This document shows, in pieces, positions 1 through 5,824 of a stretch of DNA of 5,824 nt. Source of the stretch: a virus. Lineage: Duplodnaviria; Heunggongvirae; Uroviricota; Caudoviricetes. Below the pieces are notes generated by a model. The model was not told the DNA's origin. It did not search any database and worked only from the letters and a program-made list of their open reading frames with translations. The translations under genes were made by a program, and so were the position numbers. Where the stretch lies: IMG/VR virus record IMGVR_UViG_2711768049_000003; one strand, 5' to 3'. Each line of letters begins with the position of its first letter. Position 1 is the first letter of the stretch.

Positions 1-3000
1 TCTTCTGTCCGGTTGCTGATTCAGCTTGAGCGTAGCGGGCACTGGGTGACAGAGAAGGATATCACCATTAACGGTAAGACCACCTCGCAGTACCTGACGT
101 CGGTGATAATCGGTAACCTCCCTGAGCGTCCCTTTAATATCCGGATAGTCAGGGAGACGGCGGACAGTACCACGGACCAGCTGCAGAACAGAACGCTCTG
201 GTCGTCATACACCGAAATCATCGATGTGAAACAGAGCTACCCGAACACAGCCATAGTGGGGCTGCAGGTGGATGCGGAGCAGTTCGGTGGGCAGCAGATG
301 GCGGTGAACTACCATATCCGCGGGCGCATCATCCAGGTGCCGTCAAACTATGACCCGGAAAAACGTACATACAGCGGTATCTGGGACGGGACTCTGAAAC
401 CGGCATACAGCAACAACCCGGCCTGGTGTCTGTGGGATATGCTGACGCATCCACGTTATGGTATGGGAAAGCGCCTCGGGGCCGCGGATGTGGACAAGTG
501 GGCGCTCTATGCCCTCGGACAGTACTGTGACCAGCCGGTTCCGGATGGCTTTGGTGGTACAGAACCCCGTATGACCTTTAATGCGTACCTGTCACAACAG
601 CGTAAGGCGTGGGACGTGCTGGGGGATTTCTGCTCTGCAATGCGCTGTATGCCGGTATGGAACGGACAGACGCTGACGTTTGTTCAGGACAGACCATCGG
701 ATGTTGTCTGGACTTATACCGCCGGTAATGTGGTGACGGGGGAGGATGGGGTAAGTTTTCATTACAGCTTCAGTGCCCTCAAGGACAGACACACGGCAGT
801 TGAGGTGAATTACACCGATCCGCAGAATGGCTGGCAGACATCGACTGAACTGGTGGAGGATCCGGATGCCATACTGCGCTACGGACGCAATCTTCTGAAG
901 ATGGATGCGTTCGGCTGTACCAGCCGTGGTCAGGCTCACCGGGCAGGCCTGTGGGTGATAAAGACCGAACTGCTGGAAACACAGACAGTGGATTTCAGTG
1001 TGGGGGCGGAGGGACTGCGTCACACGCCGGGCGATATCATTGAAATCAGTGATAATGCGTATGCCGGTACCGTGATCGGCGGGCGGATCCTGTCCGTCGA
1101 CAACGCCAGCCGGACCCTGACGCTTGACCGTGAAGTCACTCTCCCGGAAAAGGGCACATCCACGGTGAATCTGATAAACGGCAGTGGTAAGCCGGTGAGT
1201 GTGGATGTTACCGGGCAGCCATCACCTGACAGGATACAGATCAGCACACTGCCTGACGGGGTGGTGGAACACAGTATCTGGGGGCTGGCATTGCCGGGAC
1301 TGCGCCGCCGTCTGTTTCGGTGTGTGGCGATCCGCGAAAATGCGGACGGTACCTTCGCCATCACGGCGGTGCAGCATGTGCCGGAGAAGGAGGCCATCGT
1401 GGATAATGGTGCCACCTTTGAGCCGTTGTCCGGTTCGCTGAACAGTGTCACACCTCCGGCAGTACAGCATCTCACGGTGGAGGTAAGCGCGTCTGACGGT
1501 CAGTATCTGGCGGCGGCGAAATGGGACACGCCGAGGGTGGTGAAGGGCGTGCGCTTCAGTCTGCGCCTGACCAGCGGAACCGGTGAAAACAGCCGTCTGG
1601 TGACCAGCGCCATCACCGCCGACACGGAGCACCGTTTCAGTGGCCTGCCGCTGGGGGAATACACCCTGACGGTCAGGGCGATAAACAGCTATGGCCAGCT
1701 GGGGGAGCCTGCCACCACCACGTTCCGGATTAACGCACCGGCAGCACCTGCCACCATTGAACTGACCCCCGGCTATTTCCAGATAACAGCAGTGCCGCGT
1801 CTTGCGTTGTATGATCCGACGGTACAGTTTGAATTCTGGTTCTCAGAAAAACGCATCACGAACACGGCACAGGTGGAAACGTCCGCCCGTTATCTGGGGA
1901 CCGGCAGCCAGTGGAGCGTCTCCGGCTCGCACATTAAGCCAGGGACAGATTTCTGGTTTTATGTGCGCAGCGTCAACCTGGTGGGTAAATCCGTTTTTGT
2001 TGAAGCAACCGGACGGGCGAGCAATGATGCGGAAGGTTATCTGGACTTTTTCAAAGGAGAAATCGGGAAGACACATCTGGCACAGGGGATGTGGGAGCTG
2101 ATTGATAACAGTCAGCTTGATGATGAGATGGCGGAGATGAAGACCACCATCACAGAAACCCGCAATGAAATCACACAGACGGTCAATAAAATCCTGGAAG
2201 ACCAGAGTGTCACCATACAGCAGATACAGCGTGTGCAGAAGGAGACGGATGACAGCCTGAGCGCACTGTACATGCTGAAGGTGCAGAAAACGAAAAACGG
2301 TATTCCGTATGTTGCTGGTATTGGTGCGGGGATTGAGGATGTTGATGGCCAGACCCTGAGCAATATTCTGCTGCAGGCTGACCGTATCGCGATGATTAAC
2401 CCGGAGAACGGCAACACCACGCCGCTGTTTGTGGCGCAGGGGAATCAGTTGTTCATGAACGACGTATTCCTGAAGCGGTTGTTTGCGGTGAGCATCACCT
2501 CGTCCGGCAATCCCCCTGTGTTCTCCCTGACGCCGGAAGGCAGGCTGACGGCCCGTAATGCGGATATCAGCGGAAATATTAATGCGAACTCTGGCACGCT
2601 CAATAATGTGACCATTAACCAGAACTGCCGGATTCTGGGAAAACTGTCTGCAAACCAGATTGAAGGTGACCTGGTCAAAACAGTGGGGAAAGCTTTCCCA
2701 CGGAATAACAGTTATGCCAGTGGCACTATAACGGTCACCGTTTATGATGACCAGGGCTTCGACAGGCAGATCATCATTCCACCGGTACTGTTCCGGGGGG
2801 CGAGACATGAGCACCAGTCCAGCAAAGATCACACTTCAACATGGTATTCCACGTGTCAGTTACAGGTGCAGATGAACGGAAGGGTAATTTTTCATGAGCC
2901 GGCAACGGATGTCACCCGGGTGTTTTCGTCCGTCATTGATATGCCGGCAGGACGGGGTCATGTGACCCTGACGTTTAATGTGTGGTCGAACGGGGTGAAC

Positions 3001-3081
3001 CACTGGACGCCGACAACATACATCAGTGATTTACTGGTTGTGGTCATGAAAAAATCCACGGCGGGTATCAGTATTTCGTGA
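1..3081 (+). CDS. J: Lambda J-like central tail fibre / host-specificity protein, 5'-truncated by the window edge (C-terminal ~1027 codons present)
   Basis: Reading frame is open from nt 1 with no stop until TGA at 3079-3081; the listed ORF 13..3081 begins at an internal TTG, so the real start lies upstream of the window. The translation reads like lambda J-family proteins from memory, with fibronectin-III-like beta-rich repeats in the middle (e.g. [27 protein letters not shown]...[28 protein letters not shown]) and a distinct C-terminal ~250-aa domain. Position directly upstream of a side tail fibre gene fits lambdoid synteny. Confidence 0.88.
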
Positions 3082-3278
3082 ACATGATGACCGGAATTGC
3101 CGGAAGGATATAAAACCGTACAGTATGCGCGGGTGCCTTTGGCTGATGGCCGGAGGGAACACCTGAAGGCCTGATGTGAAAAGGCCCCGAGTCAACTTCA
3201 ATGTTAACCCGAGGCCCTGAACCGTCTACCTTAAGCAAGTGGCAGGTTAGCGCCTCTCCGTAATAAGGAGCAAGTTCT

Positions 3279-3389
3279 GTGTCGCAAAAACCGTTAAAAA
3301 CCACCGTGATTTGTATCACGGTAGTGCTCATTATCTGGATCACCCACAGTTCACTGTGTGAATTCCGGTTCCGGATAGCACCTTTTTAA
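3279..3389 (+). CDS. Candidate small membrane peptide (36 aa), Hok/Gef-family-like type I toxin, possibly C-terminally shortened
   Basis: GTG start at 3279 lies 8 nt after a consensus Shine-Dalgarno AAGGAG (3265-3270). Translation is (M)SQKPLKTTVICITVVLIIWITHSSLCEFRFRIAPF, stop TAA at 3387-3389. It has a ~15-residue hydrophobic core followed by a polar/charged L-C-E-x-R-x-R motif, resembling Hok/Gef as recalled (Gef ...VICITAVVAALVTRKDLCEVHIR...). It is too short for the ORF track and about 10 residues shorter than canonical Hok proteins. Confidence 0.4.
   Translation: MSQKPLKTTVICITVVLIIWITHSSLCEFRFRIAPF
3284..3322 (-). terminator. Possible minus-strand hairpin plus T-tract (candidate antisense-RNA terminator or mRNA structure)
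   Basis: Perfect 8-bp inverted repeat ACCGTGAT (3303-3310) / ATCACGGT (3315-3322) with a 4-nt loop. On the minus strand the stem is followed by GGTTTTTAACGGTTTTT (complement of + 3284-3302). No flanking minus-strand gene is evident, so function is uncertain. Confidence 0.22.
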
Positions 3390-3410
3390 TCCTGTAAACC
3401 ACGATTTTTA

Positions 3411-3444
3411 CCGCAGACCGGGAAACCGGCACTGCGGTTTTTTT
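3411..3444 (+). terminator. Rho-independent terminator (hairpin plus T7 tract) at the end of the J-stf intergenic insert
   Basis: CCGCAG (3411-3416) pairs with CTGCGG (3432-3437), with an inner CCGG/CCGG extension, and is followed immediately by TTTTTTT (3438-3444). It sits 22 nt after the small ORF stop and 13 nt before the stf ATG. Confidence 0.7.
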
Positions 3445-3457
3445 ATGGGGAAAATCT

Positions 3458-4864
3458 ATGGCAGTCAGAATATCGGGTGTGCTGAAGGACGGCGCGGGGA
3501 AGCCGGTACCGGGATGCACAATAGAACTGAAAGCGCGACGCACCACAGAAACGGTGATTGTCACTACGGTGGCATACGGGCAGCCGGGGGAGACAGGCAG
3601 CTACAGTATGGATGTTGAACCGGGGCTGTACCGTGTGACCCTGAACACAGAAGGGCGTATGCCGTCATACGTCGGTGACATTCTGGTGAAGGCGGACTCT
3701 GCACCGGGAACACTGAATAAATTCCTGATGGACTTTGAGGATGCGCCATATTATCCGAAAGCCCTCGCTGAGCTGGAAGCGGTGGCTGCGGAAATACTGA
3801 AGCGTGCTGAAGCCTCCGCAGCCAGTGCAGAGGAGGCCAAAAAACGGGCAGAGAATGCCAGGGGGCCGAAGGGTGATAAAGGTGACCCGGGACCGCAGGG
3901 GGTACAGGGACCGAAAGGTGAGACAGGTGCAACCGGGCCACAGGGTGAGCGTGGTGCAACAGGGGCACAGGGTGTTCCGGGCCCCAAAGGGGATACCGGA
4001 GCCACAGGACCTGAGGGTAAAGCCGGTCCTGTGGGACCAAAAGGTGACAGGGGGGACACAGGGCCCAGAGGTGAACGGGGTGAAAAGGGAGAGAAAGGAG
4101 ATCCGGGTGGCCCTCCAGGGCCAAAGGGAGATCCGGGACCACAGGGGCCTGCCGGGCCTCAGGGAAAATCAGGCAGCCTTGAAGATATTACAGACAGGGA
4201 AGCTTTCATCCGTGAGCTTGGTGTGCCCAGAGCATACGGGCGTGACATTTCAACCGGAGCAGGTGAGTGGACGACAGAAGAGTTTGTTGCCTGGCTGAAA
4301 GAGCAGGGGGCATTTGACCATACCTGCTGGATAATGAAGGCATCACTGCCAGCGGCGATGAATAAGGCCATCACTGATGTCGGACCGGGGAAACTCAATC
4401 TGGGCGGCTGTACCATTGAAGTGATGGGAACATATGACGCCGCCATTGTACGGGTCACCATTGGTGAATACGGTGCAACGGGGTTTATTAATGGCACGGT
4501 CTGTACCTGTACGGTTTATGGCGATACCCGGAAATACCACTGGCGGGTGGATTACGGTACCAGGAATAAACCCACGACGGCGAGTCTGGCTGTCAATGGC
4601 TGGGAACGTGATGAGGCTACCGGACGGATGCGACAATGGGGTACGCTTGTGATAAGTGAATCCGATGGTCAGGCGTTATCACTGCACTCCATCCGTTTTC
4701 CGGTGGTTTTTCCTTCAGCAGTGCTGAATGTTCAGGTTTCTCCGGTGGGGGAGCCCGGGAAAATTCCTGGATACACTCTGTCCTCACCGTCATTGCAGTC
4801 GGTGACACTGAGGACTGTCAGAGGAACCTCCGGTAAGTTTTTCTGGGAAGCGACCGGATACTGA
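3458..4864 (+). CDS. stf: Side tail fibre protein with lambda Stf-like N-terminal domain, central collagen-like Gly-X-Y tract and a distinct C-terminal (putative receptor-binding) domain
   Basis: ATG at 3458 preceded by GGGGA (3447-3451). The N-terminus [28 protein letters not shown]... closely resembles the lambda Stf N-terminus as recalled ([26 protein letters not shown]). An Ala/Glu-rich helical segment is followed by 34 Gly-X-Y triplets (aa 136-239), then a ~230-aa Gly-poor C-terminal domain. Stop TGA at 4862-4864. Confidence 0.9.
3863..4177 (+). repeat. Collagen-like Gly-X-Y coding repeat (27 uninterrupted triplets, a one-residue register break at GG, then 7 more)
   Basis: Translation G136-S240 of the stf ORF reads [104 protein letters not shown]. 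The DNA shows the matching GGN-rich 9-bp periodicity, which also produces the spurious minus-strand ORFs here. Confidence 0.9.
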
Positions 4865-4873
4865 GGAGGGATT

Positions 4874-5098
4874 ATGGAGCGTTATATTTTTTCACCGTCC
4901 GCGAATATGTTTTATCCGGCCTCCCTGCGTGCCGTTTACGAGACTACCGGAAACTGGCCTGTGGATGGTATAGAGGTGGACTATGCCGTGTATAAAGTTT
5001 TTGCAGCGGATGCTGCACCGGCGGGCATGAAGCGGGGAGTCGGTACGGAAAAAATGCCGGTCTGGGTGCCGGTATCGGAAGAGGGCACGGGAAAATGA
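4874..5098 (+). CDS. Small protein (74 aa) resembling the N-terminal domain of phage tail fibre assembly (Tfa) proteins
   Basis: Very strong Shine-Dalgarno GAGGAGGG (4863-4870) overlapping the stf stop, ATG at 4874. The translation MERYIFSPSANMFYPASLRAVYETTGNWPVDGIEVDYAVYKVF...AP.GMKRGVG...PVWV fits the conserved N-terminal pattern of Tfa proteins as recalled (FYPA-L---Y---G-WP-DG--V ... P-GK-R-G ... P-W). Its stop TGA (5096-5098) overlaps the next ATG in an ATGA junction. Confidence 0.75.
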   Translation: MERYIFSPSANMFYPASLRAVYETTGNWPVDGIEVDYAVYKVFAADAAPAGMKRGVGTEKMPVWVPVSEEGTGK

Positions 5099-5769
5099 TG
5101 CATGTCAGAAATTTTTCGTATTACACACCGGCAGAGCCGGATGTGGCGGGTGCGATATACCTGAAATCTGAGGATGGTCAGGACTGGTATGAATGCCATT
5201 CCAGGTTTGCGGAAGACACGCTGAAGGTGGTGTATGACAGCCGTGGTGTGATTACGGGATATGGTAAGGACATTAAGTTGTTGTGGCCGGTGAACCAGAG
5301 TGTGGCTGAAGTGCCGGACGCACCGGAAAGCCTGAAAATTGACCTGAGCGGACGCTGGGGATTTGACGGGGAAAAAATCACCGACCTGCTGACGGCTGAC
5401 AGAGCACGTGAACAGAAGGGGGCAGAAATAAATGCCTGGCGAAGTGCCATGGAAAATGCGGAGTATGTGTTTGAGTACAATGGACGGAAGTGGGACTACG
5501 GCAAGGTGACTCAGGTTCGTCTTGAGCCGTCGGTGGCAGCAGCAAAAGCGGGAATACTGCCGGAGGGATTTTTCTGGACAGATGCAGAAAATAATGACGT
5601 GCCGATGACAGCGGAGGCTTTGATCGCGCTCAGCGCCGCGGCAGAAAAGGCGATGTTTCAGAAAGGGATGGAAATCCACGTTCGCCAGCGCATGATGAAG
5701 AAAGAGCTGGAAAAGCTGACCAGTGCGGATGAGATACTGGCATATAAGGTTGGCTGGGCACAGGAATAA
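5095..5769 (+). CDS. Tail fibre assembly / chaperone-like protein (224 aa), N-terminal region resembling the P2 gpG / Mu U family
   Basis: ATGA overlap with the upstream ORF indicates translational coupling; same strand and operon as stf. Residues ~20-95 (IYLKSEDGQDWYECHSRFAEDTLKVVYDSRGVITGYGKD...SVAEVPDAPE) match the recalled P2 gpG/Mu U N-terminal pattern (W.WSEDGKNWYEE...DTIKIVYD...SVVEVPDI). The C-terminal half does not show the typical Tfa C-terminal ...PDIEWP motif. Stop TAA at 5767-5769. Confidence 0.75.
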   Translation: MMHVRNFSYYTPAEPDVAGAIYLKSEDGQDWYECHSRFAEDTLKVVYDSRGVITGYGKDIKLLWPVNQSVAEVPDAPESLKIDLSGRWGFDGEKITDLLTADRAREQKGAEINAWRSAMENAEYVFEYNGRKWDYGKVTQVRLEPSVAAAKAGILPEGFFWTDAENNDVPMTAEALIALSAAAEKAMFQKGMEIHVRQRMMKKELEKLTSADEILAYKVGWAQE

Positions 5770-5824
5770 CAGACAAAAAGATGGGGGAACCAGCACCTCA
5801 CGCATGAACTGCAAAGATTATGAA

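Follow-up and report, generated by a model that had tools for sequence, protein, structure and literature searches.

The heads of phage tail fibres and their chaperones set the host range of phages, and the two have to be moved together in re-engineered fibres, pyocins, and phage-based diagnostics. Here, a tail-fibre assembly (Tfa) module was analysed in a stretch of 5,824 nucleotides (nt) from the IMG/VR virus record IMGVR_UViG_2711768049_000003, i.e., the window, which is the right end of a lambda-like Escherichia coli prophage. In the window, an open reading frame (ORF) of 74 amino acids (aa) lies between the side tail fibre gene stf and the gene of a 224-aa tail-fibre chaperone. The region is a recombination mosaic of two head/chaperone systems, probably retained as a working unit. 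It is an unusual form of the known Tfa system and not a new kind of system.

The part of PMC9608196 that summarises North 2019 states that Tfa N-domains bind the fibre and that C-domains trimerise. TfaMu (gene U) of phage Mu, known with the Mu S fibre (5YVQ), and gpG of phage P2 have a short helical Tfa C-domain, whereas the protein of the window has a DUF4376 domain. The fibre of Mu carries the S-type head, but the fibre of the window does not. In another type, proteins with DUF4376 in the C-terminal half, encoded after fibre genes, are needed as fibre chaperones, with experimental support from the Alteromonas phages V22 and A5 and the CJIE1 prophages of Campylobacter (PMC7289586, PMC10579305, PMC7882524). 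The Alteromonas fibres with such chaperones have heads structurally like AP22 gp53 (PMC10579305). The 224-aa protein of the window shares with these chaperones, i.e., the V22 gp27 type, the DUF4376 domain in the C-terminal half (PMC7289586, PMC10579305, PMC7882524), and both systems place the chaperone after the fibre gene and have a lectin-type head like AP22 gp53. However, the DUF4376 systems have one chaperone gene, whereas the window has an additional gene, for a 74-aa N-domain, between fibre and chaperone, and its DUF4376 protein is Mu U-like in the N-part.

The Tfa N-domain type of the 74-aa ORF, represented by phrog_188 and phrog_19350, is named N188 in this study. Two Tfa proteins align with the ORF over the whole N-domain, i.e., the 146-aa Tfa of Escherichia phage 500465-2 (43% identity) and the 158-aa Tfa in the invertible segment of Mu_3F6 (33% identity). 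Both are placed behind alternative fibre C-terminal segments, and the segment of 500465-2 aligns with Gp53-like_C heads. These two proteins have approximately 70-90 extra residues, forming a helical C-domain that ends in WP..P, whereas the 74-aa ORF stops at the boundary. The same length and domain as in the 74-aa ORF were found in phrog_19350 and in five further proteins (P0134, P0137, P0153, P0185, and P0196). All five are encoded directly after a Gp53-like_C fibre, as in the window, and P0134 and P0185 also match phrog_19350, like the 74-aa ORF. Downstream sequence was present for P0134, P0137, and P0185, and there the following gene is unrelated, whereas in the window a second chaperone gene comes next.

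The features of the module in the window are as follows.

3458-4864, plus strand: side tail fibre gene stf (Stf, 468 aa), assigned by Pfam domains.
4619-4861, plus strand: Gp53-like_C head domain of Stf (Pfam PF21882, residues 388-468).
4865-4869, plus strand: Shine-Dalgarno sequence GGAGG of the 74-aa ORF, with 4 nt between it and the ATG, read directly from the sequence.
4874-5098, plus strand: 74-aa ORF with ATG start, i.e., the N188-type stand-alone Tfa N-domain ("mini-Tfa"), assigned by PHROG, HMMER, and AlphaFold.
5089-5095, plus strand: G_GGA_AAA heptamer, a perfect -1 slippery X_XXY_YYZ that is in frame with the 74-aa ORF and directly precedes the stop codon of this ORF.
5095-5098, plus strand: ATGA stop/start overlap of the 74-aa and 224-aa ORFs, read from the sequence.
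5095-5769, plus strand: 224-aa ORF with ATG start, i.e., the tail-fibre chaperone, with a Mu U-type N-domain (residues 1 to ~100) and a DUF4376 C-domain (residues 104-212).
~4573-5121, plus strand: exchangeable cassette comprising the head, the 74-aa ORF, and the first 9 chaperone codons, delimited by blastn against phage 1720a-02.

The stop codon of stf is TGA at 4862-4864, and the GGAGG begins immediately after it. Both small genes are co-oriented with stf and lie directly downstream, as Tfa genes do. An earlier note on this DNA had described a 74-aa ORF with a strong ribosome-binding site that ends in an ATGA overlap with a 224-aa protein; the coordinates and the GGAGG were confirmed in the sequence. 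The layout of fibre, short ORF, and chaperone gene was present in 88 of 5426 complete E. coli genomes.

The linkage of the short ORF to the fibre head was analysed in 79 IMG/VR loci encoding relatives of the 224-aa protein, with the heads classified by small purpose-built profiles. All loci with a Gp53-like_C head had the short N188 ORF (16/16), whereas the other 63 loci had neither feature (0/63). When the window was compared by blastn with phage 1720a-02 (L003), homology was found at 4227-4572 and 5122-5822, and none between. The fibre part of this cassette corresponds to Stf residues ~372-468. Between the E. coli allele L002 and 1720a-02, identity was 95% in the left flank, as far as Stf codon ~370, and 91% in the right flank, which starts at chaperone codon 9; the inserts between these flanks, of 549 and 684 nt, were unrelated. 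These genome comparisons show that the head and the short ORF travel together as one cassette in front of the resident chaperone gene. The earlier note had offered recombination between two tfa alleles, with a junction near 5095, as one origin of the module. The mosaic origin was borne out, but the crossover of tfa alleles at 5095 was not: the exchange unit is 'head plus short ORF', because the blastn breakpoints enclose both.

The 74-aa ORF matched the N-part of the tail-fibre-assembly family phrog_188 (profile positions 43-108 of 207, E 2e-14), in agreement with the Tfa N-terminal pattern noticed earlier, and its residues 1-70 matched positions 1-70 of 70 of phrog_19350 (E 1e-40), a family with unassigned function. 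It had no match in Pfam and NCBIfam, and none to Caudo_TAP even at E up to 1; likewise, no PDB sequence was hit at E up to 10. In the AlphaFold model (predicted local distance difference test, pLDDT, 91), residues 1-67 form a compact alpha/beta domain, for which no significant structural match was found in PDB. The 74-aa protein is thus predicted to be an autonomously folding unit. HMMER search against 1.8 billion representative proteins recovered 294 relatives. Among the 149 listed cluster representatives, N188 was residues 1-67 of 126-240 aa chaperones in 100 and the entire protein (61-95 aa) in 34. The longer N188 relatives (n=103) contained Caudo_TAP in 87, Phage_tail_APC in 16, and DUF4376 in 10 cases. 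Because the long relatives match these three families, the 74-aa protein was assigned as a genuine Tfa N-domain of type N188.

None of the full-length relatives exceeded 49% identity to the 74-aa protein, whereas the relatives at ≥58% identity were all short, mostly 71-74 aa. An in-frame continuation into a full-length Tfa, which the earlier note would have read as a sign of a frameshift or pseudogene, is therefore a feature of the distant relatives and not of the close ones. The ORF stops 7-10 residues past the N-domain and lacks the conserved C-terminal helical oligomerisation domain; tblastn for remnants of a Tfa C-domain in every frame of the window found no trace. In public annotation, the short N188 gene is variously labelled 'hypothetical protein', 'phage tail protein', or 'tail fiber assembly protein'.

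Residues 19-119 of the 224-aa protein matched protein U, the tail fibre assembly protein of Mu (5YVQ_B, E 6e-17), and residues 104-212, in its C-terminal half, matched DUF4376 (PF14301; 64.5 bits against a gathering cut-off of 25). The Mu U-like N-region and the missing Tfa motif in the C-terminal half had both been pointed out in the earlier note, and both observations held: the usual Tfa C-terminal domain is not in the protein, and DUF4376 is in its place. The two-gene module has an N-terminal domain with the TfaMu fold, i.e., of the fibre-binding type. Against Caudo_TAP (PF02413), the protein scored 13.6 bits, below the 22.1 cut-off, although many Salmonella relatives do pass. The profile check with Caudo_TAP proposed in the earlier note is thus negative for both ORFs themselves and positive for homologues of both.

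The protein aligned over its whole length with phrog_11571 and homologues of ~223-225 aa, and its family is large, with 242 homologues of 215-240 aa from E. coli and Salmonella. Phages 1720a-02 and phiSTEC1589 have a relative of the 224-aa protein 41 nt after the fibre gene, with no short ORF. Mu-like prophages of Salmonella carry such a relative in the Mu U position, 11 nt behind a fibre gene whose tip matches residues 437-503 of Mu S (5YVQ_A, E 2e-20); the fibres of 1720a-02 and phiSTEC1589 also have a homologue of this Mu S head at their end. This head is the domain co-crystallised with TfaMu, i.e., the Mu U N-domain, in PDB 5YVQ, and heads of the Mu S type were directly upstream of the relatives of the 224-aa protein in approximately 44 of the 79 IMG/VR loci. 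The 224-aa protein was assigned as a chaperone that is complete in itself and combines a Mu U N-domain with DUF4376, and the Mu S-type head is the predicted usual client of its family. The 3' part of the gene, which includes most of the DUF4376 region, was 83% identical in nucleotides to ORF-191 of AF151674-AF151676, which are the records of phages P-EibC, P-EibD, and P-EibE, named for the Eib prophages of ECOR-9.

The N188 domain and the Mu U-type N-domain of the 224-aa protein were unrelated in profile-profile comparison (hhalign probability 0.5%). Tandem duplication of one N-domain was considered as a source of the two ORFs and dropped for this reason. The two ORFs are adjacent in different frames, and in one rare variant, P0004 (98 aa), the first frame reads into the second, as would be expected if both were pieces of one former tfa broken by a frameshift. 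Such a pseudogene is hardly credible, because the 224-aa protein aligns from end to end with its family and with stand-alone homologues after the fibres of other phages, and because a fusion would hold two unrelated N-domains, an architecture absent among the homologues of either protein. The earlier idea of one tfa split into two genes is likewise not supported, since the 224-aa protein is complete, its N-domain is unrelated, and it stands alone in 1720a-02, phiSTEC1589, and Salmonella.

In the fibre protein, residues 1-134 were found to be phage_tail_N (Pfam, E 2e-40) and residues 136-193 Collagen (Pfam). The middle globular domain, residues 243-402 (4184-4663), has its homologue in the S' fibre of phage Mu (8JU3_A, residues 191-352; E 5.5e-24). 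The lambdoid side fibre and the alternative Mu fibre (S') thus have one module in common. The distal head, residues 388-468, was Gp53-like_C (E 1e-7), and the purpose-built small head profile matched 4607-4861 (E 1e-41). The Mu S-type head is absent from this fibre, and the tip is the lectin-type Gp53-like_C instead. This head is presumed, from the linkage, to be the client of the 74-aa protein.

Three E. coli allele classes of the trio of head, short ORF, and chaperone gene were found, i.e., the window, L002 (83% nucleotide identity over the short ORF), and L013, L014, and L015 (72%). The classes of the window, L002, and L013 were colinear without breakpoints over all three elements (81% and 71% nucleotide identity). 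Among the three classes, the ratio of nonsynonymous to synonymous substitution rates (dN/dS) of the short ORF was 0.18-0.24 at a dS of 0.6-1.2, with a nonsynonymous deficit of binomial p 7e-6 to 3e-4, and that of the chaperone gene was 0.13-0.21. A coding sequence was annotated over the short ORF in 39 of 40 sampled E. coli genome hits. In the L013 class, the ORF has 70 aa, and its tail after Trp64 is unlike that of the window. The N188 domain is conserved even where the junction differs, because L013 keeps the 70-aa ORF despite a different tail and a spacer. The substitution pattern shows that purifying selection acts on the 74-aa ORF, which is thus no fragment in decay. The word 'remnant' used in the earlier note is therefore apt for the mosaic origin, but not in the sense of decay, as the purifying selection and the strict linkage to one head speak against it. 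The same trio was also found on the 110-kb plasmid NZ_CP027369.1 of E. coli 2014C-3307 (L015, locus 1137-3899), with the fibre annotated as frameshifted; this plasmid also has a phage tail-tip protein gene and is apparently a phage-plasmid.

These data also bear on the possibility that the 74-aa ORF is a functionless relic, i.e., the 5' stump of a tfa gene that came with the head and stays open as a leader delivering ribosomes to the 224-aa gene. The ATGA overlap with a weak Shine-Dalgarno sequence before 5095 would suit such a leader, full-length Tfa proteins are the majority of the relatives of the domain, and frameshifted copies occasionally occur. However, a leader requires an open frame only, yet amino-acid changes are disfavoured (p <4e-4), and the L013 class keeps its ORF though it has no overlap. 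The end of the ORF always coincides with the domain boundary, with a complete and confident model, the full-length relatives are no closer than the 49% given above, and the stand-alone ORF is kept in unrelated phages that have no chaperone gene behind it. A relic is accordingly an improbable account.

In other lineages, an N188 ORF of 66-71 aa was placed directly after a Gp53-like_C fibre in 5/5 independent lineages with upstream sequence, i.e., L010, L220, L221, L222, and L223/224. L010 is a P2/HP1-like phage, and L223/224 are soil metagenome phages. Where downstream sequence was present (L010, L220, and L223/224), the genes after the stand-alone N188 were unrelated; their products are a methyltransferase, small proteins, or a protein with no assigned function. 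In L011/L012, a 72-aa N188 ORF is likewise followed by a methyltransferase, and the upstream sequence is too short to classify the fibre. In a pattern-defined IMG/VR sample of 101 complete N188 domains, 8 were short, and 7 of these 8 were behind a Gp53-like_C head.

The domain was also found in other architectures. P0176, immediately after a Gp53-like_C fibre, has N188 and DUF4376 in a single chain, and in P0182 N188 is joined to another helical domain. Published work assigns fibre recognition to the N-domain and oligomerisation to the C-domain, and this modularity fits that view. Stretches matching N188 were counted seven times in P0136 (999 aa) and five times in P0271 (716 aa). P0135 (211 aa) has two tandem copies and then a normal Tfa C-domain, P0169 (229 aa) has N188 fused N-terminally to a Gp53-like_C head, and P0158 (504 aa) has it as an in-frame fusion at the fibre end.

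The two proteins might instead be an obligate chaperone split in trans, in which N188 recognises the head and the 224-aa protein supplies DUF4376 for oligomerisation or capping, as one machine at the tip; two polypeptides would then share the task of one N188-DUF4376 protein. Single-chain N188-DUF4376 proteins exist among the long relatives (10/103), including P0176 behind its Gp53-like_C fibre, and the head, the short ORF, and the DUF4376 gene co-diverge without breakpoints in three classes, with both dN/dS values near 0.2. The stop/start overlap would fit coupled, stoichiometric expression, and the Alteromonas DUF4376 chaperones serve gp53-like lectin heads (PMC10579305). On the other hand, the stand-alone N188 ORFs of the other lineages have no DUF4376 gene nearby, so that N188 is not generally dependent on one. 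The 224-aa protein has its own N-domain of another type with another known client, and its flank is 91% identical to that of loci with Mu S-type heads, which suggests that swaps occur in front of an indifferent resident gene. An obligate split is possible but rather unlikely. The data would also fit the two-chaperone system proposed in the earlier note, as the two genes are jointly conserved.

At the junction, the ATGA overlap is kept in the L002 class, whereas in the L013 class the two ORFs are 11 nt apart if the annotated start codon is used. The Shine-Dalgarno sequence of the 224-aa gene, before 5095, is weak. The ATGA overlap suggests translational coupling of the two ORFs.

Programmed -1 frameshifting in tail genes has a precedent in lambda G/GT. 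At the G_GGA_AAA heptamer, it would produce a 298-aa N188-MuU_N-DUF4376 fusion beside the 74-aa product: the perfect X_XXY_YYZ heptamer stands in the zero frame at the stop, and the -1 frame runs on from it exactly at the ATG of the 224-aa gene. The heptamer is, however, present only in the allele class of the window (5 loci); neither the 16 loci of the L002 class (ACGGAAACATGA) nor the 6 loci of the L013 class, in which the genes are separate, have it. No downstream stimulatory structure was noticed, in an analysis that included no search aimed at one. The heptamer is probably coincidental, and such frameshifting is very improbable.

The preferred reading is that of a mosaic retained as a working unit, in which the head and the 74-aa ORF were swapped in ahead of a resident chaperone gene. 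N188 is the N-domain of a chaperone family that is common after Gp53-like_C heads, here without the C-terminal oligomerisation domain. The strong ribosome-binding site would drive translation of the 74-aa protein, which by analogy with Tfa N-domains would bind the Gp53-like_C head, either on the nascent fibre or on the mature one. As it would bind the head in the manner reported for those domains, it would act as a minimal chaperone or cap. The ATGA overlap would couple translation of the weakly initiated 224-aa gene to the 74-aa ORF. Two reasons for the retention of the 224-aa gene may be considered. DUF4376 may also act on lectin-like heads, as in the Alteromonas phages and the single-chain N188-DUF4376 proteins, or the gene may mainly be a conserved right-hand arm for the exchange of head cassettes.

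Several points weigh against this reading. AP22 gp53, which bears the reference head of the family, was obtained as a purified trimer, and a chaperone is not mentioned (bioRxiv 10.1101/518761); the Gp53-like_C head may therefore need no helper. The Mu S-type head, the known partner of the Mu U-type N-domain, is not on this fibre. A few copies of the short ORF are frameshifted (L213 around 10083-10289; P0003, P0004, and P0007). The junction after Trp64 differs between L013 and the window, which bears on independent truncation, and if the alleles were truncated independently, the selection signal could be partly inherited from full-length ancestors. Of the copies in L213, P0003, P0004, P0007, and L153, some have a single-base frameshift in a run of T close to codon 12 and others are in two pieces; real decay or homopolymer sequencing errors could account for them.

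Outside the module, the following gene was assigned in the window.

13-3081: tail-tip protein J, C-terminal 1022 residues.

In E. coli M18, which has a 99% identical copy, the host genes ykgJ and potB come after the 224-aa gene, i.e., the last prophage gene. A truncated Hok/Gef-type toxin gene was found at 3279-3389, in the intergenic region of J and stf. It has lost approximately 95 nt, and its ORF ends early; the first 34 residues are 94% identical to a 46-aa Hok/Gef protein at the same place in L002. No hok/sok family of Rfam was detected at this gene, and the Rfam scan of the whole window matched no family. The promoter and terminator scan of 3000-5824 gave no signal exceeding chance, and the repeat search of the window found the collagen repeats and nothing else. 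A 277-aa antisense ORF (TTG start, 4981-5814, minus strand), which covers nearly all of the 224-aa gene, had no Pfam family; it is probably a shadow ORF and was treated accordingly.

The existence of the short N188 gene has a meaning for fibre exchange in these phages. For Gp53-like_C heads, the natural travelling unit is the head plus a 70-aa N-domain gene. This gene is poorly annotated, with inconsistent labels, and is invisible to Pfam and NCBIfam. If the 74-aa protein is sufficient, it would give a clean test of the model in which the N-domain binds and the C-domain trimerises, and to our knowledge, no smaller tail-fibre chaperone module has been described. If the DUF4376 protein is also required, the pair would be a natural chaperone split, i.e., an exchangeable adaptor and a constant core. 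A more far-reaching but less likely reading is that stand-alone N188 proteins are a widespread and so far unrecognised kind of minimal chaperone or cap for Gp53-like lectin heads that lacks an oligomerisation domain, and that here one forms half of a split chaperone with the DUF4376 protein, so that swappable adaptors may let one DUF4376 gene serve different heads. Under either outcome, a known system is refined and no new one is revealed; the interest is mainly that a poorly annotated class of stand-alone N-domains, tied to Gp53-like heads, is brought to light.

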